Assembly (NCBI GenBank): GCA_030654225.1
Contig: JAURXY010000003.1
Coordinates: forward strand, 16,056 to 80,055
Source of the DNA: a bacterium
Lineage (GTDB): Bacteria; Patescibacteriota; Minisyncoccia; Moranbacterales; UBA2206
Direction: 5' to 3'
DNA: 64,000 bases
Part shown: positions 1,763-61,201 of the stretch, piece by piece
Position numbering within the stretch: position 1 is the first letter of the stretch
How the letters are laid out: every line of letters starts with the position of its first letter
The notes under the pieces: model-generated
What the model was told of the DNA's origin: nothing
What the model saw: the letters and a program-made list of their open reading frames with translations, nothing else
Database searches by the model: none
Program-made: the position numbers and the translations under genes

Positions 1763-2305
1763 ATGAAAGCTTTCAGATTAATAAATATTTTATTGTTTAG
1801 CAAGAAAGTTACTGAGAAAAAGAAAGCTTTTTTTTCGTCCGATAAAGACAAATCTTTTGAAAAAGCAGGGCGGGAGATAAAAGAAATTATTGGGAATCTG
1901 TATGGCGGAAGATCGTTGCGCATTAGAGCGGTGGATGCTGGTTCGACTAATGCCGAAGAAATAGAGCTGACTGCTCTTGGCAACGCCTATTATGATATTG
2001 ACCGATTTGGTTTGAGCTTTGTGGCTTCTCCGCGTCACGCCGATATGTTATTTGTGAGTGGTCCAGTGACGAGAAATCTTGAGAAAGCTTTGCTTACTAC
2101 CTATGAGGCTATGCCAAAGCCTTGCATCGTGGTGGCAATTGGAGACGGTGCTTGTACGGGTGGAATTTGGAAAGATTCTTATGCAGTGGTGGGTCCAGTA
2201 GAAAATGTGATCCCAGTACATTTGAAAATTCCTGGGGATCCGCCTTCGCCAACCGAGATGCTTGTTGGAATACTTCATGCGTTAAAGAATGGAAGCGTCA
2301 ACTAA
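1763..2305 (+). CDS. NuoB/hydrogenase-small-subunit-like protein lacking the N2 Fe-S ligand cysteines
   Basis: DIDRFGL..SPRHADMLFVSGPVTRNLEKAL...PKPCIVVAIGDGACTGGIW...VIPVHLKIPGDPPSP aligns to the NuoB/Ech small-subunit core. The CCxxE motif is replaced by AGSTNAEE and PGCPP by PGDPP. The true start may lie downstream of 1763. Confidence 0.7.
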   Translation: MKAFRLINILLFSKKVTEKKKAFFSSDKDKSFEKAGREIKEIIGNLYGGRSLRIRAVDAGSTNAEEIELTALGNAYYDIDRFGLSFVASPRHADMLFVSGPVTRNLEKALLTTYEAMPKPCIVVAIGDGACTGGIWKDSYAVVGPVENVIPVHLKIPGDPPSPTEMLVGILHALKNGSVN

Positions 2306-5893: not shown

Positions 5894-5917
5894 TTTATTT
5901 TTAAGTCTTAAATTTTT

Positions 5918-7399: not shown

Positions 7400-7408
7400 T
7401 TTTATTTT

Positions 7409-25049: not shown

Positions 25050-25955
25050 ATGGCTCAGAATTATGGACTTGGTCGAGGACTGTCATCACTCATTCCTCAG
25101 AAATCAAAAAAAATTGATAAGCCAGCAGAAGATTTCAACTATTTTGGTGCTTCTGGAAAACCAATCGCGAACGTTTCTGAAGAGAAAAATGGCATAGAAG
25201 AAATTGAAATTTCAAAAATTGTGCCTAATCCCTATCAGCCACGAACGGTTTTTGATGAAGTAAAACTTCAAGAGTTGGCTGATTCTATAAAAGAACATGG
25301 AATAATTCAGCCGATCACAGTGAGTAAATCTGGTGGGCAATATGAAATTATTGCTGGTGAACGGCGTTTTCAGGCAGCTAAAATTGCCGGCCTCGCTGTT
25401 GTGCCGGTGATTATGCGAGAAACAACAACTGATCAACAAAAACTAGAATTGGCGATTATTGAAAATATTCAACGCCAAGATTTAAATCCAATTGAAGAGG
25501 CTAAATCATATTTGAAACTTACCAATGAATTCGCTCTTACACAAGAAGAGGTTGCAAAAAAATTAGGAAAAAATCGAAGTTCAGTAGCCAACAAAGTTCG
25601 ACTTTTGAATTTACCAATTGAAATTCAAAAAGCTCTAGTGGAAGGAAAAATTACGGAAGGACATTGTAAGTTGCTTTTGGCTATTCCTAACCCAGAAAAA
25701 CAAAGAGCTTTCTATGAACTGATAATCAAAAATGGTTTGACTGTGCGTCAAACGGAAGACAAAACCAAGGAAGTGACTGTCCACTCTCATAAAAGAAACA
25801 TTGTCGTTGACCCGGAAACCAAAAGCTTGGAAGACGAACTAATCGGCATCCTTGGCACCAAAGTCAAAATAAAAAAATCAGGTGGTGGTGGGCAGATTGT
25901 GATCGAATATTATTCCAAAGAAGAATTGAATAATATTTTGGGGAAGATAAAATAA
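25050..25955 (+). CDS. parB: Chromosome partitioning protein ParB/Spo0J
   Basis: ParB box GIIQPITV...YEIIAGERRFQAAKIAG plus an HTH. The final 90 bp are duplicated at 28756-28845. Confidence 0.9.
   Translation: MAQNYGLGRGLSSLIPQKSKKIDKPAEDFNYFGASGKPIANVSEEKNGIEEIEISKIVPNPYQPRTVFDEVKLQELADSIKEHGIIQPITVSKSGGQYEIIAGERRFQAAKIAGLAVVPVIMRETTTDQQKLELAIIENIQRQDLNPIEEAKSYLKLTNEFALTQEEVAKKLGKNRSSVANKVRLLNLPIEIQKALVEGKITEGHCKLLLAIPNPEKQRAFYELIIKNGLTVRQTEDKTKEVTVHSHKRNIVVDPETKSLEDELIGILGTKVKIKKSGGGGQIVIEYYSKEELNNILGKIK
25866..25955 (+). repeat. Direct repeat copy A (3' end of parB)
   Basis: 90 bp matching 28756-28845 with 4 mismatches. Confidence 0.9.
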
Positions 25956-28755: not shown

Positions 28756-28845
28756 AAAATAAAAAAATCAGGTGGTGGTGGGCAAATTGTGATTGAATAT
28801 TATTCCAAAGAAGAACTGAATAATATTTTAGGGAAGATAAAATAA
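28756..28845 (+). repeat. Direct repeat copy B (non-coding duplicate of the parB 3' end)
   Basis: aaaataaaaaaatcaggtggtggtgggcaaattgtgattgaatattattccaaagaagaactgaataatattttagggaagataaaataa is 86/90 identical to 25866-25955. Lies outside any annotated gene. Confidence 0.9.
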
Positions 28846-32811: not shown

Positions 32812-32960
32812 TATAGGACTTACGCACTTCTCTTCAAATCTATTGTTCGCTGAAATTACAAAAAAATAAACTAAGATTATAGATAGTAATTATAGATTTC
32901 AATCCTGCCATTGTACTGGCTACATAAATAGATTTTCAGAAAAATGCGTAAGTCCTATTA
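32812..32960. repeat. ~150-bp intergenic element bounded by 15-17-bp inverted repeats (TATAGGACTTACGCA ... TGCGTAAGTCCTATTA)
   Basis: Left IR at 32812-32826 and right IR at 32945-32960 are reverse complements. The right IR overlaps the dprA stop codon, and the element sits upstream of the topA start. Confidence 0.6.
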
Positions 32961-34076
32961 TAGTTGAATATAATTTTGTCCGCCAATGTTTTTTACCCAG
33001 CCTTTAATTTCCATCATTGAAAGTGTGCCGGAACACATTGCTGTTTGCAGTTTAGCTAGTTTAGCAATATTGTCAATGTGAAGCGGATCAGTGGAAAGGA
33101 TTTTTAGCAGTATTTTTTCTTCAGCAGTCGTTGGATTTTTTGGAGATAATTCTTTTCTCACAGTTTCTTTGTTTAAATCTAATTCTTCCAGGATATCTTT
33201 TATCCCCGTAACAACGCGGGCACCAGATTTTATGAGATTATTGGTGCCGAAAGATAGTGGGGAAAAGATTGAACCCGGCACAGAAAAAATTTCTCGATTA
33301 TATTCCAGGGCCATATTAGCTGTTATAAGTGAACCGCTTTTTTCTCCCGCTTCAATTACGATTGTTCCAAGTGTAAGCCCAGCGATAATTCTGTTTCTAG
33401 CAGGAAAAGTCATTGGTCCGGCAGGCATTTCCAACGGATATTCGCTAACAAGGGCTCCACTTCTCATTATTTCACGAGATAAATTGAAATTATTTCTTGG
33501 ATAAATATTTATATCATCTAAACTGTTGCCAAGAACAGCAATAGTTTGCCCGGCATTGTCCAGTGCACCTCGGTGAGCGAAGGTGTCAATGCCAAGCGCC
33601 ATTCCACTCACAACTACAACGCCAGCGCTAGCTAAATCTTTGGCGAGGCTAGTGGCAATTTGCGAACCATAAGCAGTGTATCTTCTTGAGCCAACAATGG
33701 AAATCATCGGAGAGGCATTTATATTAAATTCTCCTTTTGTATAAATAATATATGGAGGGTTGTTAATTTCTTTGAGAAGGGCAGGGTAGAGCGAATCGGG
33801 AAGGGTAATCATCTGGATATTTTCTTTTTGCATTTTTTCCCATTCAAAATCAGGGTTAATATTGGCTTTTTCCAAGAATATTTTTTCGGCTAATTTTTCT
33901 CCAACAGCACTATTTTTAAGATCTTCTAGGCTGGCGTGCCAAATATTTTCACCAGTTTCGAAAAAATTCAAAAGCATCTGCATTTTTTTTGCTCCAACTC
34001 CAGCGATTTTGTTTAGCGCGTTCAAATATTTCATAAGTTCTCTTTCAATGTAGCACAAAAGTGAAAAACTTGACAA
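32958..34076 (-). CDS. dprA: DNA processing protein DprA/Smf
   Basis: ISIVGSRRYTAYGSQIATSLAKDLASAGVVVVSGMALGIDTFAHRGAL is the DprA Rossmann-like core. Confidence 0.9.
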   Translation of the reverse strand: MSSFSLLCYIERELMKYLNALNKIAGVGAKKMQMLLNFFETGENIWHASLEDLKNSAVGEKLAEKIFLEKANINPDFEWEKMQKENIQMITLPDSLYPALLKEINNPPYIIYTKGEFNINASPMISIVGSRRYTAYGSQIATSLAKDLASAGVVVVSGMALGIDTFAHRGALDNAGQTIAVLGNSLDDINIYPRNNFNLSREIMRSGALVSEYPLEMPAGPMTFPARNRIIAGLTLGTIVIEAGEKSGSLITANMALEYNREIFSVPGSIFSPLSFGTNNLIKSGARVVTGIKDILEELDLNKETVRKELSPKNPTTAEEKILLKILSTDPLHIDNIAKLAKLQTAMCSGTLSMMEIKGWVKNIGGQNYIQL

Positions 34077-34111
34077 ATATTCAATCTATGCTAGAATAGT
34101 CTACTAATATG

Positions 34112-34149
34112 CGATGCGAATCTACGAATGACATGCGAATCTACGAATA
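34112..34149 (+). promoter_or_regulatory. Dispersed element: tandem ATGCGAATCTACGAAT dimer
   Basis: gatgcgaatctacgaatgacatgcgaatctacgaataaa. The same 38-bp dimer recurs at 36516-36553 and 50651-50688, with variants at 43207-43245, 50046-50084 and 50205-50243. Confidence 0.6.
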
Positions 34150-35222
34150 AATTCAAAGGAATGATTAAAAATAAACTAAAAAATTCAGAAATTGTGAGCA
34201 GAAGCGACAAAAAATCGCTATTTTTAGGTTTATCAAACGATTTGCTTTCTGGGTTGAATCAACGATCTCGAGAAATAGTGCAGAAAAGATTTGGTCTTTT
34301 GAATGGAAACCGAGAAACACTGGATAAAATTGGGCGTCACTATGGGATAACAAGAGAAAGAGTGCGACAGATAATTTTTGAAGCGCTTCGAAATATCTCC
34401 GCCAAAACGGAACATGAAAGCTTTGTGAGCGCCGAAGAAAAAATAATTTTTACAATTAACCAAAACGATGGTATAATAAAAGTAAGTGAAATTATTGAAA
34501 AATTTAATTCCACTGGACAAGCGGAAGCGAACGCTATAAAGTTTTTTGCTCTTTGTTCTAAGAGAATTTTAGAAGCTGAAGAAAAAAATGTTTTTGAAAA
34601 GATTTGGACAGTTTCTGAAGATATACTTTCTGAGGTGAAGAAAACTTTAACTGAAGCTGAAAAAATTGTCAAAGAAGAAAAGAGGTTGTTTAGTGACGAG
34701 GAAATTATCGAGAAACTTTTTTCTGCTTTGCCACATTTGCCAAAAGGAAAAATTCTAAACTTTCTCAAAACCTCAGCTAACATCAAGAAAAATAAGTTTG
34801 GCAAGAGAGGCATGAAAAATTGGGCGGAAGTTTCCCCAAAAGGAACGCGAGAAAGGGTACATCTAGTTCTCAAGGAACACAAAAAACCCTTGCATTTTGT
34901 GGAAATCGCCAGTCTTATTGACAAATTTGAATTAGGCAAGAGAAAAGCTCATCCGCAAACTGTGCACAATGAATTAATCAAGGATGAAAGATTCGTTTTG
35001 ATTGGAAGAGGAATCTATGCACTCCGCGAATGGGGATATTCTGAAGGGACAATTCAGGAAGTGATCAAGAGTATTTTGAAGGAAAAGAAAAAACCTCTGA
35101 AAAAAGAAGAGATAATTGAAGAAGTTTTGAGAATTCGAAAAGTAAAAAAAACTACGATTAGTATCAATTTGAATAATGCTAAAATTTTTGAGAGAAAAAA
35201 CGAGACTTATACTATAAAATAA
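34128..35222 (+). CDS. Sigma-70 region-4 (HTH) domain protein with uncharacterised C-terminal domain
   Basis: LSGLNQRSREIVQKRFGLLNGNRETLDKIGRHYGITRERVRQIIFEALRNI matches sigma-70 region 4.2. The start is probably the MIKNK ATG at 34161. About 250 further aa have no recognisable motif. Confidence 0.55.
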   Translation: MTCESTNKFKGMIKNKLKNSEIVSRSDKKSLFLGLSNDLLSGLNQRSREIVQKRFGLLNGNRETLDKIGRHYGITRERVRQIIFEALRNISAKTEHESFVSAEEKIIFTINQNDGIIKVSEIIEKFNSTGQAEANAIKFFALCSKRILEAEEKNVFEKIWTVSEDILSEVKKTLTEAEKIVKEEKRLFSDEEIIEKLFSALPHLPKGKILNFLKTSANIKKNKFGKRGMKNWAEVSPKGTRERVHLVLKEHKKPLHFVEIASLIDKFELGKRKAHPQTVHNELIKDERFVLIGRGIYALREWGYSEGTIQEVIKSILKEKKKPLKKEEIIEEVLRIRKVKKTTISINLNNAKIFERKNETYTIK

Positions 35223-35240
35223 AAATTTCATTTTAATGTC

Positions 35241-36512
35241 ATGAACAACGCTTCGGACATCTTCGCAATATTTGTAGCCTTGTGGCAAGCCATCAGTTTT
35301 TTTTGGTGGATTATATTGCCGATAATGTTTTGGTATATTTTCAAAATTATTTGGAAAGACTTCACTCTTGTCAAATCTGTTATTTCTTGGCGAAGGCTTC
35401 AGCAGTGGACATTTGTGGAGATAATTCCTCCACGAGAGATTGAAAAAGGTCCCAAAATGATGGAAACTATTTTTTCCAGTATGGCTGGAGTCTTGTCGAC
35501 ATACAACACTTTTGATGAATATTTAAAAGGAGCTTGGGAACACGACCGTTTTAGTTTGGAAATTGTGGGAGAAGAAGGAAAGCTCCATTTCTATATCCGC
35601 ACGCAAAAAAGATTTTTGGGACTTGTGGAAGCTAATATCTATGCACAATATCCAGACGCAGAAGTTTTGGAGGTGCCCGACTATACGGCAAATTTTCCGA
35701 AAATTATTCCCAACAAAGATTGGGATCTTTGGGGGACTGATTTTGAATTTGTAGCCAAAGGTCCGATTCCAATTAAGACTTATGACAGATTTGAAGAAAC
35801 TGTTTCAGGAGAAATGAATGATCCAATGTCGGCTATTGCGGAAATAATCGGATCGCTTGGTCCTGGGCAGCACATTTGGCTTCAATACGTTTTGCAACCC
35901 TTGCCAGAGCCAGAAGCAAAAAAGAAAGAGCATATGGATGTGTTAAAAAAACTCAAAGGAGAAAAAGTGGTTGAGGTAATGGGACTTGGCGGACATCTGA
36001 TAGACGTTTTTTCTAATTTAACCAAGGGCTTGTCGGCTCCCGTAGAATTTGCAGCAGCAAAAAAAGAAGAATTGGGGCCATTGGAATTTCGACTTTCTCC
36101 GGGGGAAAAAGATCTTTTGAAAGCTACTGAAGAAAATCTAGGGAGAAATCTTTTCAAAACAAAAATGCGCTATATTTATTTGGCAAAAAAAGATAGTTGG
36201 GATGGATCATATAAAACTTCTTTTATCGGGGCATTGAAACAATTTAATGATTTGAATTTTAATCAGTTTAAGCCGGAAGATATTTCTAAAACTTATGGAA
36301 AAATATTTTTTACTGAGCCAAGAGCTAATATAAGGAAAAGAAAACTTCTGAATCGCTATAGATTTCGTAATATGGATGGAGTGAATATGATTTTTTCTAC
36401 CAAAGAATTGGCGACAGTGTTTCATTTCCCTGATATGGGAGTAAAATCACCTGCGGTACAAAGAACTGCGGGAAGATTGGGTAGTGCGCCGGCTAATTTA
36501 CCAATAGAATAA
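35241..36512 (+). CDS. Hypothetical membrane-anchored protein (2 N-terminal TM helices)
   Basis: 423 aa, N-terminal FAIFVALWQAISFFWWIILPIMFWYIF then a soluble domain. No recognised motif. Located immediately upstream of the VirD4-like ATPase. Confidence 0.45.
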   Translation: MNNASDIFAIFVALWQAISFFWWIILPIMFWYIFKIIWKDFTLVKSVISWRRLQQWTFVEIIPPREIEKGPKMMETIFSSMAGVLSTYNTFDEYLKGAWEHDRFSLEIVGEEGKLHFYIRTQKRFLGLVEANIYAQYPDAEVLEVPDYTANFPKIIPNKDWDLWGTDFEFVAKGPIPIKTYDRFEETVSGEMNDPMSAIAEIIGSLGPGQHIWLQYVLQPLPEPEAKKKEHMDVLKKLKGEKVVEVMGLGGHLIDVFSNLTKGLSAPVEFAAAKKEELGPLEFRLSPGEKDLLKATEENLGRNLFKTKMRYIYLAKKDSWDGSYKTSFIGALKQFNDLNFNQFKPEDISKTYGKIFFTEPRANIRKRKLLNRYRFRNMDGVNMIFSTKELATVFHFPDMGVKSPAVQRTAGRLGSAPANLPIE

Positions 36513-36515
36513 ACC

Positions 36516-36553
36516 GATGCGAATCTACGAATTTAATGCGAATCTACGAACAA
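36516..36553 (+). promoter_or_regulatory. Dispersed element: tandem ATGCGAATCTACGAA dimer
   Basis: gatgcgaatctacgaatttaatgcgaatctacgaacaa, 35 nt upstream of the ATPase start codon. Confidence 0.6.
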
Positions 36554-36587
36554 AATACGAAAAATTTTATTAATTACAAAAATTACA

Positions 36588-38450
36588 ATGGGTGATATTA
36601 ACTTATTTGCTAAAACTAATTTTAGGAATCAAGAAAGAAGTTTTGGGATAAAAACAGATGACCGTAGGCGTCATATGTATGTGATTGGAAAGACTGGAAT
36701 GGGAAAATCTAACATGTTGGAAAACATGGCGATTCAAGATATTCAAGCTGGCCGGGGAATGTGCTATGTTGATCCGCACGGTGAAGGCGCAGAAAAAATG
36801 CTTCGAGCTATTCCGGCTAATCGCATAAATGATGTGGTCTATTTCAATCCGGCGGACAAAGAATTTCCAATTGCTTTTAACATTCTGGAATCAGTCGAGG
36901 AGGACAAAAAACATTTGGTGGCTTCTGGCATGATGGGAGTTTTCAAAAAAATCTGGCCAGATGTTTGGAGTCCAAGAATGGAATATATTTTGAACAATAC
37001 GATTTTGGCACTACTAGATTATCCTGGTTCGACAATGCTTGGAGTGAATCGAATGATGAGTGACAAAGATTATAGAAAAAGAGTTTATCCAAAGATAAAA
37101 GATCCGGTGGTGAAATCTTTTTGGCTGAATGAATTTGATAAATGGGAAGATAAATTCAGAAAAGAAGCCGTAGCGGCTATTCAAAACAAAGTGGGACAAT
37201 TTTTGTCATCTTTTGTCATTCGTCATATCGTAGGGCAACCAAAATCTTCCATTGATATGCGAGATATTATGGATAATGAGAAAATTTTAATTGTTAATCT
37301 TTCTAAGGGGAGAATTGGAGAGGATGCCATGAGACTTTTGGGCGGAATGATTGTGACTAAAATTCAGTTGGCGGCAATGGGACGAGTAGAAATTCCAGAA
37401 AATGAAAGAAAAGATTTTTTTCTTTATGTGGATGAATTTCAAAATTTCGCCACTGAATCTTTTGCTAATATTTTGTCCGAAGCTAGAAAATATCGTTTAG
37501 CTTTAATTTTAGCGCATCAATATGTCAATCAGTTGATTTTTGATGGCAATACCACAGTGCGAGATGCCATTTTTGGCAACGTTGGAACAATCGTTTCTTT
37601 TCGCGTTGGAGCGGAAGATGCTGAGGCTTTGGAAAAAGAATTCGATCCTGTTTTTTTAATGAACGATATTGTGAATCTTTCCAAATATCAAATGTATTTG
37701 AAGCTCATGATCGATGGTATTGCCGGAGATGCTTTCAGCGCTACTTCTCTTCCGCCGATAAGTCTAGCTGATACTGAAAATAATGAAGGAAAGGCAATAG
37801 CTGTTTCGCGTGAACGCTATGGAAAATCCAGAAAAGAAGTGGAAGAAAAAATTGCGCGTTGGAGCGGAATGTTTGATTTTGAAGAATTTGAAAATGAAGG
37901 AGGCGGAGAAAAGGTTGACACGGAAAAGCCTAAAGAAAAAAATATTATTATTCCTAATCCACAAGCGAAAAAATCAAGATTAAATAACGTAGAAAGAGAT
38001 AGTAATAGTATAAAAAATGAGGCAGTGATTAAGGCTGTAATTCCAGTTGAAAAAATTATTAACACTGAAATTAAGGAAGAGAAAAAAATGTACGACGCCG
38101 TTTGTAGTAATTGTGATGAAAAAATTCAAGTGCCATTTGCGCCTGATCCGAAACGACCAACTTTTTGCAAGGAATGTCTCAAGGAATATCAAAGAGCCAG
38201 AGCGGTAAATCAAAAAGAAAAAGAAGAAAAGCAAAGTTATGTAGCGAAAAGAGAGATTACTCCGAAATATTCGCGAGATGAAGAGAGACAGCAAAATTCA
38301 AAACCGGATGTGATTGTTTCCTGCGACAAGCCGATGAGTCTTTCTCAAATGTCGCATATTGCACCCAAAAAATTCAAGTCTCTTCGAAAAAAATCGGAAG
38401 TTAATTTAGCTGACGTGAGAAATTTGATAAACCAAACAAAAAATAATTAA
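36588..38450 (+). CDS. AAA-like ATPase of the TraD/TraG/VirD4 (type IV coupling protein, DUF87-like) family with C-terminal zinc ribbon
   Basis: Walker A HMYVIGKTGMGKSN, Walker B FFLYVDEFQNF, and the RLALILAHQ motif characteristic of the TraG/VirD4 C-terminal domain. C-terminal CSNCDEKIQ...CKEC zinc ribbon. No N-terminal TM region. Confidence 0.6.
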   Translation: MGDINLFAKTNFRNQERSFGIKTDDRRRHMYVIGKTGMGKSNMLENMAIQDIQAGRGMCYVDPHGEGAEKMLRAIPANRINDVVYFNPADKEFPIAFNILESVEEDKKHLVASGMMGVFKKIWPDVWSPRMEYILNNTILALLDYPGSTMLGVNRMMSDKDYRKRVYPKIKDPVVKSFWLNEFDKWEDKFRKEAVAAIQNKVGQFLSSFVIRHIVGQPKSSIDMRDIMDNEKILIVNLSKGRIGEDAMRLLGGMIVTKIQLAAMGRVEIPENERKDFFLYVDEFQNFATESFANILSEARKYRLALILAHQYVNQLIFDGNTTVRDAIFGNVGTIVSFRVGAEDAEALEKEFDPVFLMNDIVNLSKYQMYLKLMIDGIAGDAFSATSLPPISLADTENNEGKAIAVSRERYGKSRKEVEEKIARWSGMFDFEEFENEGGGEKVDTEKPKEKNIIIPNPQAKKSRLNNVERDSNSIKNEAVIKAVIPVEKIINTEIKEEKKMYDAVCSNCDEKIQVPFAPDPKRPTFCKECLKEYQRARAVNQKEKEEKQSYVAKREITPKYSRDEERQQNSKPDVIVSCDKPMSLSQMSHIAPKKFKSLRKKSEVNLADVRNLINQTKNN

Positions 38451-45178: not shown

Positions 45179-45469
45179 TTGTATAATAGACAAGAAACCC
45201 CGCACCAATTTCGATAAGATTTTATTTTAAGAAATAGTCTTAATTGCGAATACGCCTACGGCTTGGATTTTAATAAAAAAATTGTTTGATATTAGAATTG
45301 GTGAGGGGTAAAGTTATCCACAGGTCTTGCATTATTTTCAAAAAACTGTAGAATTATTTTATTAATTAAATTAAATAAAAAGCTGGGCAGTATTTTTAGG
45401 TTTTTTTCGCTTCGCATTAGAATTGTTATGAATGTGAGGTTTACTGTCGGGCTAAATAAAAGGTAAGAG

Positions 45470-50046: not shown

Positions 50047-50084
50047 CATGCGAATAGCGCGCTACGAATGCGCCCATGCGAATG
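50046..50084 (+). promoter_or_regulatory. Dispersed-element variant ATGCGAAT-[AGCGCGCTACGAATGCGCCC]-ATGCGAAT (infA-rpmJ spacer)
   Basis: Read directly. Ends 8 nt before the rpmJ ATG. Confidence 0.5.
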
Positions 50085-50205: not shown

Positions 50206-50243
50206 CATGCGAATAGCGCACTACAAATGCGCCCATGCGAATT
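50205..50243 (+). promoter_or_regulatory. Dispersed-element variant ATGCGAAT-[AGCGCACTACAAATGCGCCC]-ATGCGAAT (rpmJ-rpsM spacer)
   Basis: Near-identical copy of 50046-50084. Confidence 0.5.
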
Positions 50244-50650: not shown

Positions 50651-50688
50651 ATGCGAATCTACGAATGACATGCGAATCTACGAATTAT
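50651..50688 (+). promoter_or_regulatory. Dispersed element: tandem ATGCGAATCTACGAAT dimer (rpsM-rpsK spacer)
   Basis: atgcgaatctacgaatgacatgcgaatctacgaattat, identical to the copy at 34113-34149. Confidence 0.6.
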
Positions 50689-54776: not shown

Positions 54777-55922
54777 ATGAAAAATATAATTGGAATAAAG
54801 AAAAAACACATAAAGGGATATAACTATCTTTCCCTTTTTTCTTTTCCTTCAAATGAGATAAGAAATGCTATTCCGAATTCGCTGATTCAAAAATCAAATC
54901 ATGCGCAATTTCTTTTAGGAAAACTTTCTGGAATTACAATATTACTCCCGGATGTCAATTATTTTATAAGCTCGTATGTCATGAAAGATGCGGCGTCTTC
55001 TTCTCAAATCGAAGGAACAAAAGCGACTATGATTGATGCTTTGGAATATGTTGCTGATTCGATGAGCGAAAGCGACACGGACGCAGACGATATTGCTCAT
55101 TATATACAGGCTTTAAATTATGGCCTAGACAGATTAAAGCAAGAAAATTTTCCTTTCACCCTTCGTTTTATAAGAGAGTTGCATGGCAAATTGATGCAAA
55201 AAGCGCGATCAACTCATTTTGCTGATCCTGGTGAATTTCGCAAGTCTCAAAATTGGATTGGCGGAACAAGACCTGATAATGCAAGTTTTGTGCCACCTGC
55301 TCCAGAAGAAATTGCCAGTGCACTTGGTGATCTTGAAAAGTTTATCCATTCTTCATTTGCCCATCCGGTCGTGGACGCTGGTTTATTGCATGCGCAATTT
55401 GAAACTATCCATCCATTTTTGGACGGCAATGGTCGCACAGGAAGGCTTTTGATTACTTTTTATCTAATTCATCATAAATATCTTGAGTTGCCGGCATTAT
55501 TTTTGTCGTCTTATTTTAAAAAATATCAAAAAGTTTATTATCAGAGACTTGGTAAATATCATAATGGCAATATTTTGCCATGGCTTGAATTTTTTACGGA
55601 TGCGGTAATTGAAACGGCAAATGAGGCAATAGAAATATCAAAAAAGGTGACGAAATTACGCGATCGAGATTTGATTATTATTTCAAGATTTAGCAAAAAA
55701 ACTTCAGATATTGCTGTAAAGGTTGTGCAGAGGTTATATAAAGATCCAATAGTTTCATCTACTACTATCCAAGAGTGGATTGGTCAAACAAAACCGGGTG
55801 CGCTTAAATTTATTGATAAACTTATTGAGTCGGATATTTTAGTGCTTCATCGCAAAGGAGAAGGAACACGTCCATCATTATATGCACATAAAGAATATCT
55901 AAAAATTTTTGCTGAAAAATAA
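54777..55922 (+). CDS. Fic/DOC family protein (long form with C-terminal wHTH-like region)
   Basis: Canonical FIC motif HPFLDGNGRTGRLL. 381 aa. Confidence 0.8.
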   Translation: MKNIIGIKKKHIKGYNYLSLFSFPSNEIRNAIPNSLIQKSNHAQFLLGKLSGITILLPDVNYFISSYVMKDAASSSQIEGTKATMIDALEYVADSMSESDTDADDIAHYIQALNYGLDRLKQENFPFTLRFIRELHGKLMQKARSTHFADPGEFRKSQNWIGGTRPDNASFVPPAPEEIASALGDLEKFIHSSFAHPVVDAGLLHAQFETIHPFLDGNGRTGRLLITFYLIHHKYLELPALFLSSYFKKYQKVYYQRLGKYHNGNILPWLEFFTDAVIETANEAIEISKKVTKLRDRDLIIISRFSKKTSDIAVKVVQRLYKDPIVSSTTIQEWIGQTKPGALKFIDKLIESDILVLHRKGEGTRPSLYAHKEYLKIFAEK

Positions 55923-55999
55923 TTGGATTTTAAAATTAGAAAATATCACAAAAAAAGAAAAAGCCCATCACGGGCTTTTTCTTTACGAAAGGGGGGATT

Positions 56000-56060
56000 G
56001 GGGGTAAGATATAAGTGTTAAGTAACCCGCCTCATCGGCGGACAAGCATGTTAAGTAACA
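56000..56060 (+). promoter_or_regulatory. Conserved element GGGGGTAAGATATAAGTGTTAAGTAACC (copy 2) plus a second GTTAAGTAACA
   Basis: Read directly. Lies upstream of the AbrB-like/MTase operon. Confidence 0.6.
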
Positions 56061-56078
56061 AAACTAAAAACAAATAAT

Positions 56079-56261
56079 ATGCCTACGCGAAAAATTGAGG
56101 AGAAAAATGTGAGGAAATTAACCCGCATGGGGAGAGCGGGAAGTAGTCTCGGGATGACCATCCCGAAAGAAATTGTCCAGGAACTTGGTTGGCGAGAACG
56201 TCAGAAAGTGGTTGTGAAAAAGTTGGGGAATAAATTAATCATTGAGGATTGGAAGAAATAA
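56079..56261 (+). CDS. AbrB/MazE/SpoVT-type swapped-hairpin DNA-binding protein (antitoxin/controller-like)
   Basis: 60 aa: RKLTRMGRAGSSLGMTIPKEIVQELGWRERQKVVVKKLGNKLIIE is the typical SpoVT-AbrB fold pattern. Directly upstream of the MTase. Confidence 0.55.
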   Translation: MPTRKIEEKNVRKLTRMGRAGSSLGMTIPKEIVQELGWRERQKVVVKKLGNKLIIEDWKK

Positions 56262-56270
56262 ATAAGAATT

Positions 56271-57494
56271 ATGGCGAACAGCAATCTTACAAACGCAAAA
56301 AAAGCCAAGAATGATGAGTTCTATACTCAATTTGGAGATATTCAAAAAGAGATTGAGGCATATTTGGAATATGACAAAAATGTATTCCGAAATAAAGTAG
56401 TATATTGCAACTGCGATGATCCGTTTGAAAGCAATTTCTTTCGCTATTTCGTGCTTAATTTCAACAAACTTGGATTGAAACAGCTTATCACAACTAGTTA
56501 TAAACCCTCGCCAGTAGCCAACACGCAACTAGCGCTATTTGGCGATGATAAAACTCTCACAAAATTAAAAGGCCGTCCAAAAATAAATGCTAACAAATTT
56601 ATTATCAACGAAGTGCACGACATAGATGGTGATGGAGAATTTAATTTGAAGGATATCGCTCAACAACTAAAAGATAACAAAAACAATGAATGGGAGCCAC
56701 TCATCGGCGACGGTGATTTTCGTAGCGATGAATGCTTGGATTTACTTAAAGCGTCAGACATTGTAGTAACGAATCCGCCCTTTAGTTTGTTTCGCGAATA
56801 CGTTAATCAACTTTTTGAGCACAACAAAAAACTTGTCATTATTGGAAATATGAATGCGATTACATATAAGGAAATTTTCCCCCTGATTAAAGCAAATAGA
56901 TTGTGGCTTGGAGCAACTGGAAATGGAAGTGATATGGTTTTTGCCGTACCAAGCGGTATTGAGATTGCAGAGAGTGACAGACAAAAGGCAGCTCGACTAG
57001 GTTATGTAGGTGATTATACAAGACTTGGAAACTCTTGCTGGTTTACAAATCTTGATCATGGTAGGCGTCATAGACCACTACCACTAATGACGGGGGCAGA
57101 TATTATAAAGTTCAGTGCAAAAAAACCGTTTGAAAAATACGACAATTATAATGCAATAGAAATTTCTTTTGTTAAAAATATCCCTAGTGATTATGATGGA
57201 GTGATGGGTGTGCCGATTAGTTTTCTTGATAAATATAATCCCGACCAGTTTGAAATTTTAGGAGCTACTCAAAGAGGTTGTCATAATGAGGTTCCTGACA
57301 CAAAAAAATATGATGATTACTGGGAAGTAAGACAGAGTGGCAAGAAAACAGGATCTTCTGGTGGGAAAACAAATGAAAATGCTAATTTAGTTGGGAATGA
57401 TGGGAAGAAGAATTATTTTATAAATAACGAAGGCCGAATAATTCAATCCGCTTATCAAAGAATTTTTATTAAACATAAGAAAGTCAAAAAATAA
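56271..57494 (+). CDS. N6-adenine (or N4-cytosine) DNA methyltransferase, gamma-class motif order
   Basis: EFYTQ (motif X-like), ...CDDPFESNFF (motif I-like), VVTNPPFSLF (motif IV, NPPF). Confidence 0.75.
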   Translation: MANSNLTNAKKAKNDEFYTQFGDIQKEIEAYLEYDKNVFRNKVVYCNCDDPFESNFFRYFVLNFNKLGLKQLITTSYKPSPVANTQLALFGDDKTLTKLKGRPKINANKFIINEVHDIDGDGEFNLKDIAQQLKDNKNNEWEPLIGDGDFRSDECLDLLKASDIVVTNPPFSLFREYVNQLFEHNKKLVIIGNMNAITYKEIFPLIKANRLWLGATGNGSDMVFAVPSGIEIAESDRQKAARLGYVGDYTRLGNSCWFTNLDHGRRHRPLPLMTGADIIKFSAKKPFEKYDNYNAIEISFVKNIPSDYDGVMGVPISFLDKYNPDQFEILGATQRGCHNEVPDTKKYDDYWEVRQSGKKTGSSGGKTNENANLVGNDGKKNYFINNEGRIIQSAYQRIFIKHKKVKK

Positions 57495-57496
57495 CT

Positions 57497-58363
57497 ATGA
57501 AAGAATTTTTTAAGAGTAGTTTGTTTTGGTTGTTGCCGTTGATTCTTTTTTTAATGGCATTATACAGAGAATGGGAAAATGATAACAACCTTGGAAAAGA
57601 AATTAGAAAAATTTTTTGTAACAAAAAGTTTAAAGGAAAAAAGGTTTCGATAAGACAGCCAGATATATTTCTTTATTATATCCTTCAACGTTCTTTAAAT
57701 TATTTATTCAGGGGAATTGTCCTTAGGCATATTTTAAATTATTATCTAGTGTTCCCTCTTACAATAATTTTTTCACTATTTTTATATTATCGATATGAAG
57801 TTGACGATCAGAGTTTGATATTGTTTATAACATTCATGTCTATACTTTGGTATTCCAAAGAAACTTTTGATTCCAGGCAAGAACAAAAAAATGCAAATAG
57901 AATTGCGAAAAAAGCAAATGAAATTGCAATTGGAAGACCCGTTCTATCAATTATAAAAAATTATGGTGATACGATTGAACTTAGAAATGATGGAACTAAT
58001 ATAGCTTACAATATTTGGATTAAATTTTATTATAAGGAAAGAGAAAATATTAAAAATGACAAGATTAAATTTCCAATTTTAGGTAGGGGACTATTTTACC
58101 GGATTGACATTAACAACGGAGCGTTTAATATTCTGTTGAGCGAAAATTCAAAAAAATTAATTGATTTAATAGATGGAGAAAAGAAAAATGAAAATGATCA
58201 GCTGATTCCAGATGAAAATTTAGGAGTGATTATTGAATATAGCGATTCCTCAAGTAAAGAAGGGAGACAGTATTTTGATTATTGGAAAGTAGATAAGGAT
58301 ATCTTATTGAGTCATAATGAAGGAAGATTTAGATTAGAGAAAATGAATATTGTAAATAAATAA
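57497..58363 (+). CDS. Hypothetical membrane protein, translationally coupled to the MTase
   Basis: 288 aa with 3-4 predicted TM helices in the N-terminal half. No motif. The start lies 3 bp after the MTase stop. Confidence 0.45.
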   Translation: MKEFFKSSLFWLLPLILFLMALYREWENDNNLGKEIRKIFCNKKFKGKKVSIRQPDIFLYYILQRSLNYLFRGIVLRHILNYYLVFPLTIIFSLFLYYRYEVDDQSLILFITFMSILWYSKETFDSRQEQKNANRIAKKANEIAIGRPVLSIIKNYGDTIELRNDGTNIAYNIWIKFYYKERENIKNDKIKFPILGRGLFYRIDINNGAFNILLSENSKKLIDLIDGEKKNENDQLIPDENLGVIIEYSDSSSKEGRQYFDYWKVDKDILLSHNEGRFRLEKMNIVNK

Positions 58364-58575
58364 AACCATGCGAAGTAAGTCTGAGATCTTGAACTAATTT
58401 ATTTTATGAATAAACAAGACAAAAACAACCATCTCAAACGGTGAGACTAAGATCGAAGTGCATGTTGAGTGTGAGACGATGTGGCAACTGTTCGGAAATT
58501 CCGAACAACTTAGCATAAAAAGATTTCTTACATACTGCCTAATATTCTAAAAATTATAAACTAACTAAAAAAAAT

Positions 58576-59745
58576 ATGAAAACAATTTTAAAAACCGACA
58601 TTACTGTCAAAGATATTTGCGAAGGATTTGTTTATAACGAACTTGAGGGCAAAGGACTTTTTGGTTTGTCTGGCAAATTAACCATTCAACCGGAATATCA
58701 GCGTAATTATATTTATGCCTCCGATGGTGGGAAAAGAGAAATTGCTGTTATCGAATCAATACTTAAGGGTTATCCAATAGGTTTGATTTATTTTAATGTG
58801 GTTTCTGAAAGTGGTCTGGAAGTTTTGGACGGGCAACAGCGCATCACTAGTCTCGGACGATTTTTGACTGATAAATTTGCAATCAAAGATGAAAATGGCA
58901 TGGAACAATATTTTTCAGGTCTTGCAAAAGATAAACAATCCAAAATATTAAAGACAACACTAACTATTTATGAATGTAAAGGCGAAGAAAGTGAGATAAA
59001 AGAATGGTTTCGAACGATTAATATTGCCGGTGTTCCGCTTAATAATCAAGAACTTCTCAATGCAGTTTATTCTGGTCCGTTTGTTACGCTTGGCAAAGAA
59101 GAATTTTCAAACAGCCAAAACGCCAATATTCAAAAATGGAGCGCTTATGTATCGGGTAGCGCCAACCGACAAGAATTTTTGGAATGCGCATTGGACTGGG
59201 TTAGTAAATGCAATATCGGCGATTATATGAGCAGTCATCGCAATGATAAAAATATTACTGAATTAAAAACCTATTTTAACAGTGTGATTGATTGGGTATC
59301 TAATGTATTTACTGATATTGAGAGCGAGATGAAAGGTATTGAATGGGGACGATTGTATGAGCAGTATCACAAGAAAGCTTATGATCCTGTTAAAGTGTCG
59401 GCAGAAGTGAAAAAACTTTACGGTGATCCGTATATCAAAAATCGAAAAGGTATTTTTGAATATATTCTCGGTGGATCCGTCAACACAAAATTACTTGAGG
59501 TTAGAATTTTTGATGAAGCAATTAAAAAAGCAGTTTATGTAACACAAACTACTAAAGCAGAGAAAAAAGGCAAATCAAATTGCTCGCATTGTGCTATTGG
59601 ACACGATGCTAACAAAAGCAAGATTTGGAAGCTAGATGAAATGGACGCCGATCATGTGGCGGCATGGAGCAAGGGTGGTGCGACTTCAATAAAAAACTGT
59701 GAAATGTTGTGTAAGACGCATAATAGAGCAAAGGGGAATCGGTAA
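58576..59745 (+). CDS. GmrSD-like type IV restriction endonuclease (DUF262 ParB-like NTPase + C-terminal HNH/DUF1524 nuclease)
   Basis: DGQQRITSL (DUF262 hallmark) and a C-terminal H-N-H pattern: [51 protein letters not shown]. Confidence 0.8.
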
Positions 59746-59776
59746 AAAACTAAAAGCGTAATTAATAAGCTTTGGA

Positions 59777-60286
59777 ATGAATAAAAATATGATAGATGAT
59801 AATCTAAAGCTAATAATAGAGAGTGTTTCTGATGAAAAGTTCAACGAAACTATATCTAAAGGAGCTTTAAAATTAAATGATAATCAAATTCAAACAGTGT
59901 CTTTTATTTTTTGGCTTTGTTATATGGCTGAAAATGATTTGAATGATGTGTTAAAACAGGCGTGGCAATTATCAACTGAAATAACGAATCCAGAAATTAG
60001 CGAGTCTGATCAAAAAATATTATTGAAAACATTTTCAAAAAAAGATAACTTTGACATTAATAATTTAGAATATTTTGCAGACAAAATAAAAATACACGAA
60101 GCAATGTGTGACGATAATCTTACAAAATTATTATGGAAATTAAATGAGCTAAGAAATGATATAAGTCATAATCGCATTAATAAGTTGGGATATAACGGCC
60201 AGAGCTTATTTTTAAGAGAAATAAAAGAAAAAATATTATTTGACTATTTTGAATTGTTTGAACATTATAAACCAATAAAATTATGA
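59777..60286 (+). CDS. HEPN-domain protein (Abi/Swt1-like, Rx4-6H)
   Basis: 169 aa all-alpha. LRNDISHNR matches the HEPN Rx4H motif near the C-terminal helix. Confidence 0.45.
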   Translation: MNKNMIDDNLKLIIESVSDEKFNETISKGALKLNDNQIQTVSFIFWLCYMAENDLNDVLKQAWQLSTEITNPEISESDQKILLKTFSKKDNFDINNLEYFADKIKIHEAMCDDNLTKLLWKLNELRNDISHNRINKLGYNGQSLFLREIKEKILFDYFELFEHYKPIKL

Positions 60287-60343
60287 TTTCACTGCTTCCT
60301 TCATATCTTTCGCTTCGATATGAAAGCGAAGTAAGAAAATAAC

Positions 60344-61201
60344 ATGAAAAATTATCGTCTTGCCATTGATGGTGATCGTTATGAGCAATACTATTGGAGT
60401 TTATTTATTCAAAACAATTTTCAAAGCTATGAGGATTTTTGGATAGAGAATATTGTTCTGCTAACCAATCGACCGCAAGATATTCATTTCAAAACTGATC
60501 AGGAATTAGCAAAAATTGGAAAAACAGACAACGATATTTGCATTGCTCAACTTCATTATTCAATTTTGAGGCATTTGGCTCGAGCGTTTGATATTTGGAA
60601 CAAGGACCGTGTTGATCTTGACGATTTGACTGACGGGATGACTCGATTGTGTGGTGCACTTGATGTCACGTTTGAATTATTGGAAAGATTTGAAAACCCT
60701 TCTAATTATGATTCTTGGCTTGCAAGAAAAAATAATGGCAATCTAGGTGGTGAAGATGCTCGAAAGAATTGGAAAGAAAAATATCCTGAAAATATAAAAT
60801 TAATTAGATATTATAGAAATCATCTTGTTCACGGGAGGATGACGCCTGGAATAATAGAACATATTTTTTATTTTCCAAAAATAAGTATGGAAGAGAAATA
60901 TTTTGATTGGAGAGAAATAACTTTCAAAAATGAAATGGAAAAAAATAAAAATAATTTTATGTCGGCAAAAGAAATTTTGGAATTGGCGTGGCATGAAGTG
61001 GTTGACTATCTTGATAACCAATGGAGAATTCACTTGTTAAAACAGGAAAATCCTGATAAGGATATAGACAAATCAAATCTTATTTCAAAGAAGACTGCTA
61101 GTGGCGTATGGTCTAAAGGCACAAAAGTTTTCAATACATCTGCAACGCAACTTAGTGGCTCAGTGTATGAAACAGGCAAGGACGAAAAAATAATTTTTTA
61201 A
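60344..61201 (+). CDS. Hypothetical protein, possible second HEPN-like protein
   Basis: 285 aa. YYRNHLVHGR contains an Rx4H pattern. No other motif. Confidence 0.35.
   Translation: MKNYRLAIDGDRYEQYYWSLFIQNNFQSYEDFWIENIVLLTNRPQDIHFKTDQELAKIGKTDNDICIAQLHYSILRHLARAFDIWNKDRVDLDDLTDGMTRLCGALDVTFELLERFENPSNYDSWLARKNNGNLGGEDARKNWKEKYPENIKLIRYYRNHLVHGRMTPGIIEHIFYFPKISMEEKYFDWREITFKNEMEKNKNNFMSAKEILELAWHEVVDYLDNQWRIHLLKQENPDKDIDKSNLISKKTASGVWSKGTKVFNTSATQLSGSVYETGKDEKIIF

Follow-up and report, generated by a model that had tools for sequence, protein, structure and literature searches.

We analyzed a 64-kb window (by which we mean the whole stretch of 64,000 nucleotides under study) of the low-GC (~36%) chromosome of a member of Candidatus Moranbacteria (Patescibacteria, or candidate phyla radiation [CPR]). 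It contains three co-oriented open reading frames (ORFs), here called ORF1, ORF2, and ORF3 (Table 1), the second and third of which very probably encode, between them, a type IV coupling protein (T4CP) that has been split in two. ORF3 is an ATPase of the coupling-protein type that lacks a transmembrane (TM) segment, and ORF2 is a member of the protein family DUF8128 (PF26449). Judging from sequence comparisons, the piece that is separately encoded is not the classical TM domain of a T4CP, and would instead be a whole conserved N-terminal domain that also bears the membrane anchor. Proteins identical to ORF2 and ORF3 are on record in one metagenome-assembled genome (MAG), and near-identical ones are found in MAGs of Moraniibacteriota.

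ORF3 Is an ATPase of the Coupling-Protein Type

The inferred product of ORF3 scored above the Pfam cut-off for TrwB_AAD_bind (PF10412; 38.9 bits against a cut-off of 20.5, over residues 23-341), as well as for T4SS-DNA_transf and TraG-D_C (PF02534 and PF12696), and below it for DUF87 (HerA; 20.4 bits against 23.2) and for the VirB4-like model AAA_10 (15.6 bits against 27.5). A profile built from 30 sequences of the ORF3 family retrieved only DotL and TrwB from the sequences of the PDB, and its alignment to TrwB by hhalign (probability 93.9%, E 1.5e-7) covered 251 columns from Walker A to Walker B, whereas the alignments to the VirB4 proteins TrwK and TrsE were limited to 34-44 columns at the P-loop. 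Structural comparison gave the same order: in a Foldseek search with the predicted model of ORF3, TrwB came first (6.5e-8), followed by DotL and Cag-beta and then by the C-terminal domain of VirB4 (3.9e-6) and HerA (4.9e-6), with the top 21 matches all being TrwB, DotL, or Cag-beta. No family match to FtsK was found in the Pfam, NCBIfam, or PDB/Foldseek results. We therefore rejected the assignment of ORF3 to the HerA, FtsK, or VirB4 proteins, for which matches were weaker, absent, or confined to the P-loop.

The architecture of ORF3 has features in common with TrwB of R388, VirD4, DotL, and Cag-beta, namely, a P-loop nucleotide-binding domain, an R..HQ motif, the TraG-D_C region, and possibly a helical insert between the Walker motifs. 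The Walker motifs are separated by about 240 residues, a stretch of which (residues 105-230) is predicted to be helical (at a model confidence of only 55-80), and the alignment to TrwB extends through this inter-Walker region. Unlike these proteins, to which it is about 17-18% identical, ORF3 has no N-terminal TM domain of its own, carries an added zinc ribbon that is reached through a low-complexity linker, and is not adjacent to genes for a relaxase or for mating-pair formation. Indeed, no 19-residue window has a Kyte-Doolittle hydropathy above 1.6, so there is no TM segment, and Walker A begins as early as residue 34. The original prediction, made from the nucleotide sequence, had described a 620-residue ATPase of the TraD/TraG/VirD4 family with Walker A and B motifs and a motif of the RLALILAHQ type, lacking the usual N-terminal anchor and ending in a CxxC...CxxC ribbon. 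The profile searches, the translation, the hydropathy analysis, and the matches of the ribbon to zf_Tbcl_2 and TIGR04272 bear out this description in each of its parts, and by Pfam, hhalign, and Foldseek alike the protein groups with T4CPs rather than with HerA or FtsK.

A separate observation concerns the defense-system models of PADLOC, among which mad8, of the MADS system, matched the core of ORF3 (36588-37700) with 66.5 bits (E 6.8e-19), a score above that of every Pfam model for T4CPs. The clade to which ORF3 belongs may thus have a relative in Mad8, which would then be a soluble, T4CP-like NTPase of small size.

ORF2 Is a Membrane-Anchored Member of the DUF8128 Family

ORF2 had originally been described as a protein of unknown function. 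It matched no model in the Pfam and NCBIfam sets that we searched (PF26449 being absent from that Pfam set), but in precomputed annotation PF26449 is assigned to the identical protein (P0001) and to every homolog listed, and ORF2 is hence a DUF8128 protein. The family is large, comprising 1,585 clusters at 50% identity (E ≤ 1e-3). Sixty-seven diverse members matched no other Pfam family and no PDB sequence, and the family has no mention in the literature that we searched.

Hydropathy analysis revealed a single continuous hydrophobic stretch at residues ~7-38, modeled by AlphaFold as one long helix, and a single uncharged run is likewise present in most members of the family. The membrane segment of the original prediction is thus present, whereas the two TM segments that it had proposed were not borne out. 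Because lysine and arginine residues follow the hydrophobic stretch, we read ORF2, by the positive-inside rule, as having one N-terminal anchor and a cytoplasmic remainder of ~370 residues. The protein ends in a conserved C-terminal tail, ELATxxHFP...APxNLP.

What might the large cytoplasmic domain be? When the AlphaFold model (pLDDT 72.7) was compared with the PDB by Foldseek, 13 matches were obtained at E ≤ 1e-3, all of them TrwK/VirB4 chains of the R388 type IV secretion system (T4SS), with E-values of 2.6e-5 to 7.8e-4 and TM-scores of only 0.32-0.38; the matches that came after them were unrelated alpha/beta proteins. Since the list included no structure consisting of the VirB4 C-terminal domain only, nor TrwB, HerA, or any other RecA-like ATPase, and since ORF2 has no P-loop, the region matched would be the N-terminal domain of VirB4. 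The resemblance is weak and at the level of the predicted fold, in that the TM-scores are low and hhalign found nothing when DUF8128 was compared with TrwK or with TrsD and TrsE of pSK41. DUF8128 is not homologous to the usual N-terminal TM domain of T4CPs.

In layout, the ORF2-ORF3 pair resembles VirB4 (TrwK) together with VirB3, and the archaeal proteins CedB and CedD, in which a membrane segment, an alpha/beta N-terminal domain, and an ATPase of the FtsK-HerA superfamily are likewise combined. It differs from all of these in that the ATPase half is of the T4CP type and in that DUF8128 lacks profile similarity to TrwK, TrsD, and TrsE. The N-terminal domains of CedB and CedD are reported to superpose on that of VirB4 and to be required for DNA import (PMC11868833).

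ORF2 and ORF3 Correspond to the Two Halves of Natural Fusion Proteins

That ORF2 and ORF3 are functionally linked is shown by the occurrence of their counterparts as single polypeptides in a patescibacterial contig and in plasmids of Bacillaceae. The contig (L143) contains an ORF of 854 codons that encodes a TM segment, a DUF8128-like domain (residues 95-409, corresponding to residues 75-423 of ORF2), and an ATPase domain (residues 412-831) that is 45% identical to residues 6-422 of ORF3 and that is recognized by Pfam as TrwB_AAD_bind, T4SS-DNA_transf, and TraG-D_C. The two domains meet precisely at the point that corresponds to the end of ORF2 (APxNLP) and the beginning of ORF3 (..DDRRRH).

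The plasmid-borne fusions came to light in a tblastn search of plasmids with ORF2, which identified a gene on a megaplasmid of Bacillus sp. F19 that is annotated as encoding a "DUF87 domain-containing protein." The 869-residue product matched the DUF8128 profile over residues 54-314 (probability 98.4-98.5%, E 1.5e-15 to 7e-15) and the ORF3 profile over residues 345-704 (probability 99.6%, E 7e-25), and it is more similar to ORF3 by blastp (3e-31) than is TrwB (2.6e-6). In all, 18 plasmids of Bacillaceae carry a DUF8128-ATPase fusion, examples being CP085711 (417514-420123) and NZ_OX419581 (39108-41849); across these two, the probability of the match to the DUF8128 profile was 97.7-98.5%, that of the match to the ORF3 profile was 99.6-99.7%, and the blastp value for ORF3 was ~1e-31. 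Downstream of the fusion gene on the F19 plasmid lie a relaxase-like gene (Replic_Relax, PF13814) and a gene for TcpC. On a 63.6-kb plasmid of B. subtilis the order is fusion, replication-relaxation gene, tcpC-like gene, tcpD, tcpE, and a gene for a TcpF/VirB4-like ATPase (NF052333, 7.5e-124). Thus, in the two plasmids inspected the fusion stands where a conjugation locus of the Tcp type has its coupling protein.

Both halves of the Bacillaceae proteins are homologous to, and collinear with, ORF2 and ORF3. The plasmid proteins differ in being one polypeptide, in having an acidic C-terminus and neither an N-terminal TM segment nor a zinc ribbon, and in being encoded beside Replic_Relax and TcpC/D/E/F genes with no partner of the ORF1 type; they are themselves uncharacterized and have no NCBIfam name. 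That ORF2 might be the split-off anchor of a coupling-protein-like translocase had been proposed from the outset, and the collinear fusions, the synteny described below, and the T4CP identity of ORF3 all support the idea of a split; ORF2 is more than an anchor, however, in that it carries the ~370-residue domain.

There is precedent for such an arrangement. T4CPs without a TM segment that rely on a membrane protein from another gene form an accepted subclass, as exemplified by TraJ/TraI of pIP501, and in both the pIP501 pair and the R27-type pair TraG-TraJ a soluble ATPase of the VirD4 family obtains its membrane attachment from the product of a neighboring gene (PMC7434980). The likeness to TraJ/TraI is one of arrangement, and there are differences: the partner here is a protein of 423 residues with a large, conserved cytoplasmic domain rather than a small membrane protein, and the module is chromosomal, relaxase-less, and vertically inherited.

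The Gene Order Is Conserved across Diverse Patescibacteria

The conservation of the module was investigated in 80 genome loci (from Moraniibacteriota, Paceibacterota, Minisyncoccota, and the "Parcubacteria group") and in further loci, among them 80 metagenome loci seeded by the most distant subfamily, for a total of 166 loci, in which ORFs were called and 1,839 neighboring proteins were clustered. Wherever the contig extends far enough, ORF1, ORF2, and ORF3 are collinear in every one of the 80 genome loci, down to 38-45% identity. An ORF3-type gene lies immediately 3' of the DUF8128 gene in 69 of 71 Moranbacteria loci and in 48 of 64 distant loci, and an ORF1-type gene lies immediately 5' of it in 63 of 67 and 41 of 67, respectively. 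The synteny among relatives on which the original prediction depended is therefore found. The invariant core of the module is DUF8128 and the ATPase, with ORF1 as a frequent third member.

The surroundings are less constant. In five distant representatives with ~30% identity to ORF2, including one from Kerfeldbacteria, the order is Sigma70_r4 (with or without HARE-HTH), DUF8128, and T4CP-like gene, and their flanks differ, with secD-secF located upstream in four cases and with recO upstream of the trio and comEC after it in the fifth (L081). The relA-topA-dprA side is retained in closer relatives only, and secD-secF is found upstream in 40 of 86 distant loci.

Certain loci contain a DUF8128 gene in other company. 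In L154 (1539-6846) and L162 (3987-9115) the gene stands alone, with no adjacent ATPase, and is followed by comEC (DUF4131+Competence), the Lactamase_B part of ComEC, pilM, small genes resembling pilus-assembly genes, and ligA. In L125, where it also stands alone, dus-dnaG-rpoD intervenes between the DUF8128 gene and pilM. In L121, L131, and L136 an ORF1-type gene and the DUF8128 gene are followed, in place of the ATPase gene, by genes for a GT4 glycosyltransferase, a DUF4012 protein of 770-965 residues, and a DUF11 protein, which hints that some DUF8128 paralogs act in the context of the cell envelope.

ORF1 Contains a σ70 Region-4 HTH and a HARE-HTH Domain but Is Not a σ Factor

The original prediction recognized in the first gene of the trio a helix-turn-helix (HTH) corresponding to region 4 of σ70. 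This domain is indeed present, but it is not the only recognizable part of the protein, which also has a winged helix of the HARE-HTH type and a further C-terminal stretch that is winged-helix-like. We place the start of translation at the ATG at 34161, which is preceded by AAGGA and agrees with the N-termini of homologs, whereas the upstream ATG at 34128 falls inside a repeat (see below). Homologs of ORF1 number more than 6,500, and the pair PF04545+PF05066 was present in 120 of the 120 listed. In an alignment of 114 sequences conservation was highest in the recognition helix of the region-4 domain (TRERVRQI) and in the HARE-HTH, the latter being the best conserved region of the protein.

Two candidate identities were tried and rejected. 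ORF1 is not a σ factor in that it has region 4 only, no region 2 having been found with Pfam or NCBIfam; NCBIfam σ models matched it only via the last ~60 residues and with no more than 50 bits, as compared to full-length cut-offs of more than 240. Nor is it the δ subunit of RNA polymerase (RpoE): the HARE-HTH is not N-terminal, the score for TIGR04567 (37.6 bits) is below the cut-off of 42, and the C-terminus is basic rather than acidic.

The Module Is a Vertically Inherited Chromosomal Operon

Upstream of the trio and on the opposite strand are relA/spoT, topA, and dprA. Downstream are mnmA, which begins 6 nucleotides past the stop codon of ORF3, two small ORFs, and alaS; no terminator-like site is found between ORF3 and mnmA or alaS, and the operon continues into both. 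In 11 genomes in which the ORF2 homolog is less than 70% identical, the median identity was 75% for relA, 68.8% for ORF3, 64.9% for topA, 59.9% for dprA, 57.3% for ORF2, 55.2% for mnmA, 51.3% for alaS, and 49.9% for ORF1. Hence, the divergence of the module tracks that of housekeeping genes. Around the module we found no integrase, boundary repeat, or break in composition. In the 64-kb window, inspection of the translations yielded no match to a T4SS gene, a pilus gene, or a relaxase, and no VirB4-like protein was present among the 1,839 neighboring proteins of the 166 loci. We conclude that the module is a domesticated, relaxase-less chromosomal operon that is inherited vertically, and so it no longer serves plasmid transfer, in keeping with the earlier suggestion that it is not a conjugative element.

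These findings bear on the idea that the module is a defense system, in which an anti-phage ATPase of the MADS or HerA type is paired with a σ-like regulator, or else the remnant of a mobile element such as a decayed integrative conjugative element. The affinity of the ORF3 core for mad8 (6.8e-19, better than any Pfam T4CP model), the match of the region-4 domain of ORF1 to MzaA, and the plasmid location of the Bacillaceae homologs are in its favor. We nevertheless regard it as highly improbable: the remaining genes of MADS or MZA are missing, and ORF1 and ORF2 have no MADS match; the module keeps its place on the chromosome across dozens of genomes, diverges like housekeeping genes, and is bordered by no integrase, repeat, or shift in composition; and T4CP homologs are reported in 96% of Patescibacteria genomes (PMC12102498), whereas defense systems and remnants of conjugative elements are patchy. 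Assignment to MADS or MZA itself was rejected, the matches being at the level of domains (a mad8-like core, and MzaA for the region-4 domain) and no companion genes being present. An origin from phages or viruses was likewise rejected: the family is absent from phage records, and the sole match in viral contigs was partial, involving the C-terminal tail only.

A Proposed Membrane-Tethered Motor for DNA Transfer

We lean toward the view that ORF2 and ORF3 form a split, T4CP-like motor that energizes the transfer of DNA or nucleoprotein to a channel encoded elsewhere. In this model ORF2 would supply the single membrane anchor and the cytoplasmic N-terminal domain, and ORF3 would supply the P-loop motor of the TrwB/VirD4 type with its putative helical insert, its lineage-specific zinc ribbon, and its conserved basic tail. 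The conserved C-terminal tail of ORF2 would dock on, or continue into, the N-terminus of ORF3, and the complex would be a membrane-tethered hexameric NTPase. ORF1, with its region-4 HTH and HARE-HTH, may be a DNA-binding adaptor, an autoregulator, or both. The cargo, presumably DNA or nucleoprotein, would be recruited and passed to the envelope channel, for which the most probable candidate by homology, put forward tentatively, is the T4SS of Patescibacteria; ComEC is a less probable one, and we consider it unlikely.

For plasmid T4CPs the role of DNA-binding adaptor is played by TrwA, TraM, and PcfF, to which we liken ORF1. In R388 the gene that immediately precedes that for the T4CP bears no annotation beyond "hypothetical protein"; we take it to be trwA. 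The trwA-trwB order of R388 is then mirrored by the location of the gene for the putatively DNA-binding ORF1 upstream of the T4CP pair.

The question of orphan T4CPs in these bacteria has been raised by Quinonero-Coronel et al. (2025; PMC12102498). In that report, 5,713 genes for T4CP homologs are counted across 2,918 of 3,035 Patescibacteria genomes, only 148 of these genes being close to virB4; VirB4 itself occurs in 2,417 genomes, and exaptation of the orphan T4CP homologs is deemed possible. ORF3 is likewise encoded away from virB4, its name at NCBI is [quoted passage not shown] and it is almost certainly one of these orphans. The passages of the report that we consulted contain no description of a DUF8128 partner, of a σ-region-4/HARE-HTH gene, of a split/fusion relation, or of the zinc ribbon.

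Several observations weigh against a motor of this kind. Neither the window nor the 8-10 kb around the module in the 166 loci yielded a gene for a relaxase, for VirB4 or VirB6, or for another T4SS component. According to PMC12102498, T4CP homologs are more widespread than VirB4 (96% of genomes as compared to 80%), and the T4CP homolog of S. epibionticum, in contrast to its T4SS genes, is reported to be non-essential, which makes coupling to the T4SS less certain. The trio is not invariant, because 12 of 64 distant loci have no ATPase within reach of the DUF8128 gene and because in 13 distant loci secF replaces ORF1 directly 5' of it. The commonest neighbors, secDF upstream and mnmA/alaS downstream, are housekeeping genes that are uninformative with respect to DNA. 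ORF1 might be a transcription factor and nothing more. Finally, the AlphaFold model of ORF3 is of low confidence (mean pLDDT 57, with ~60-85 in the core).

Among alternative functions, the first is that of a motor for natural transformation, in which the DUF8128/T4CP-like ATPase would pull single-stranded DNA through ComEC to DprA and RecA, with ORF1 binding DNA and the motor taking the place of ComFA of Firmicutes. The module may have such a role in DNA uptake. The adjacent dprA gene is divergently oriented, with promoter-like sites that overlap, and in L014, L081, L113, L154, and L162 comEC is an immediate neighbor of the module or of the DUF8128 gene, with pilM next in the last two. The archaeal DNA importers CedB and CedD share the layout of TM segment, N-terminal domain, and ATPase (PMC11868833). 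ComEC, DprA, and ComFC are listed as the conserved com genes of CPR bacteria, and in S. epibionticum both com genes and the t4cp homolog are reported to be non-essential (PMC10633639 and PMC12102498). On the whole, we think this function unlikely. Genes for competence or pili lie close to the module in ~36 of 166 loci (22%), about what a rough estimate of chance predicts for ±8 genes in a small genome, the loci being non-independent; comEC (5 of 166), pilM (9 of 166), and dprA (22 of 166) occur at about the level of that estimate, with no enrichment over it that would support a competence link from gene neighborhood. The dprA adjacency, from which DNA uptake had originally been surmised, is limited to those 22 loci, all in one clade of Moranbacteria, and so does not sustain that surmise. 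Moreover, the nearest homologs with an informative context are conjugative, which is export rather than import.

A second alternative is that of a housekeeping translocase alone, FtsK/SpoIIIE-like or otherwise, that acts in chromosome segregation at division or in SecDF-linked protein export, with ORF1 as its transcriptional regulator. This possibility is consistent with the housekeeping-level conservation and vertical inheritance of the module, with secD-secF upstream in 40 of 86 distant loci (secF being directly adjacent in 13), with the lack of a terminator-like site between the operon and mnmA/alaS, into which it continues, and with the presence of parAB and ftsA in the window. We judge it quite unlikely, in that ORF3 is specifically T4CP-like, with no FtsK among its Pfam, NCBIfam, and PDB matches, in that the adjacency to secDF may simply be an inherited gene order, and in that the non-essential T4CP homolog reported for S. 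epibionticum (PMC12102498) argues against an essential role in division.

Returning to the split coupling-protein motor, a more far-reaching proposal joins two claims: that the module, with ORF1 as its DNA binder, is a relaxase-independent core DNA motor, either for uptake through ComEC or for feeding an essential T4SS, and that DUF8128 is a true N-terminal domain of the VirB4 type, such that the pair would be a living intermediate between VirB4 and VirD4 that keeps the ancestral two-domain architecture. We hold this combination to be doubtful.

Promoter-Like Sites, Repeats, and Other Features of the Window

The coordinates of the features discussed here are collected in Table 1. The promoter-like sequence upstream of the operon is conserved in the five closest relatives (L001-L005). 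It stands back to back with that of dprA, with the -35 hexamers overlapping (34047-34097), and occupancy of one of the two sites could influence the other. The TTG at 34076 that is listed as the start of dprA is probably too far upstream; an ATG near 34034 is the likelier start.

Table 1. Positions of Genes, Protein Motifs, and Intergenic Elements in the 64-kb Window
Feature	Position	Strand	Basis or remark
dprA, divergent neighbor	32958..34076	-	ORF list; context, outside the conserved module
dprA promoter-like site, divergent	34076-34047	-	Overlaps operon promoter-like site
σ70-type promoter-like site of operon, TTGACA, 16 nt, TG-n-TAGAAT	34070..34097	+	Best in region, 11/12 matches plus TG
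ATGCGAATCTACGAAT dimer, ORF1 5' leader	34114..34148	+	Copy of dispersed intergenic repeat
ORF1, 353 aa from corrected start	34161..35222	+	ORF list begins at 34128
ORF1 σ70 region-4 HTH, aa 39-90	34242-34397	+	Pfam Sigma70_r4, E 4.7e-14
ORF1 HARE-HTH winged helix, aa 245-302	34860-35033	+	Pfam, E 1.7e-9
ORF2, 423 aa, DUF8128 (PF26449)	35241..36512	+	N-terminal anchor and ~370-aa alpha/beta domain, read as cytoplasmic
ORF2 N-terminal hydrophobic anchor, aa 7-38	35259-35354	+	Hydropathy
Second ATGCGAATCTACGAAT dimer, ORF2-ORF3 junction	36517..36551	+	C is the last base of the second unit; a fifth TACGAAA heptamer follows at 36556
ORF3, 620 aa, TM-less TrwB/VirD4-type coupling-protein ATPase	36588..38450	+	Pfam, NCBIfam, hhalign, Foldseek
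ORF3 Walker A, GKTGMGKS	36687-36710	+	Translation checked
ORF3 Walker B, FFLYVDEF	37416-37439	+	Translation checked
ORF3 motif RKYRLALILAHQ	37485-37520	+	Translation checked
ORF3 zinc ribbon, CxxC-x17-CxxC	38082-38186	+	zf_Tbcl_2 5.3e-11 (aa 499-533); TIGR04272 2.8e-12 (NCBIfam)
ORF3 conserved basic tail PMSLSQMSHIAPKKF	38331-38375	+	
Third ATGCGAATCTACGAAT dimer, between rpsM and rpsK	50651..50685	+	

A dimer of the 16-mer ATGCGAATCTACGAAT precedes both ORF1 and ORF3, as had been noticed originally. The 16-mer has six matches, as compared to 0.89 expected, and none of 100 shuffled sequences reached six. The dimer does not qualify as a shared regulatory signal of the operon, or as an operator or promoter specific to it, because a third copy lies between rpsM and rpsK and because the dimer is missing or replaced in the closest relatives, in which ORF2 is 77-97% identical and which lack it at both sites. 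At the position of the ORF1 leader, L001, L003, and L004 have a hairpin element, L002 has ATGCGAAT-hairpin-ATGCGAAT, and L005 has nothing. The gap between ORF2 and ORF3, which is 75 nucleotides here, is 7-8 nucleotides with no repeat in L001 and L005 and contains other inserts in L002, L003, and L004.

The heptamer T[AG]CGAAT occurs 24 times on the forward strand of the window and once on the reverse strand, with 17 copies in the ~12% of the sequence that is intergenic. Elements composed of T[AG]CGAAT and ATGCGAAT are located at 34114-34148, 36517-36562, 43237, 45245, 50049-50083, 50208-50242, and 50651-50685, and are also found in L002, L003, L006, and L043. Their units are tandem 16-mers or flank a GC hairpin, lie in the sense orientation of the neighboring genes, and vary in position among close relatives; ATGCGAAT-hairpin-ATGCGAAT units are found 3' of infA and rpmJ. 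No Rfam family matches the element. The repeats create spurious ATG starts for ORF1 (34128) and rpsM (50227). A signal at the level of RNA and a mobile mini-repeat are both possibilities for these elements.

Another element, of ~120 nucleotides, lies at ~45190-45310 between tyrS and the next gene. Its ends form inverted repeats, CCCGCACCAATT ... AATTGGTGAGGGG, on either side of a core with GCCTACGGC. It resembles a miniature inverted-repeat transposable element (MITE) or a small structured RNA, and related copies were recognized by eye in the ORF2-ORF3 junctions of L002 and L004 (about 9270-9440).

As read from translations, the remainder of the window contains atpC, a hydrogenase-4/Mrp-like cluster, leuS, glmM/glmS, dxs, parA/parB, ftsA, a ribosomal-protein operon, and a small restriction/Fic island. 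The cluster beside atpC (1763-8971) resembles a membrane-bound group-4 [NiFe]-hydrogenase or Mrp-type complex, with one small subunit, three large, polytopic subunits that resemble antiporters, and one large subunit of the NuoCD-like kind. The island (54777-61201), between rpsI and rpsB, contains genes for a Fic protein, a DNA methyltransferase-like protein, and a DUF262/HNH-like protein, together with several unassigned ORFs, and is probably a restriction or defense island, as judged by the translations only. Finally, a 90-nucleotide direct repeat, 96% identical between its copies (25866-25955 and 28756-28845), represents the last 90 nucleotides of parB, with the stop codon, copied 2.9 kb downstream. 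The copies enclose four genes (lemA, a gene for a TPM-domain protein, and two for membrane proteins), and the duplication looks like the footprint of an insertion or duplication.

Implications for Patescibacteria

The gene families considered here are already in databases, as DUF8128 and as "T4SS DNA-binding domain-containing protein," and orphan T4CPs have already been counted in the literature. We found no description of the operon, of the split/fusion relation, of the link to the coupling proteins of Bacillaceae plasmids, or of a possible VirB4-like N-terminal domain. Patescibacteria, which are host-dependent, account for much of the diversity of bacteria, and T4CP homologs are present in nearly all of them. 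In the Parcubacteria-type lineages that we sampled, these homologs are half of a conserved two-gene machine, the other half being DUF8128. This machine is usually encoded together with a DNA-binding protein of the σ-region-4/HARE-HTH type and is of the same stock as the coupling-protein type of Bacillaceae conjugative plasmids. This provides a first functional context for DUF8128, and, if its VirB4-like fold is true, the family would also bear on the origin of coupling proteins from VirB4.

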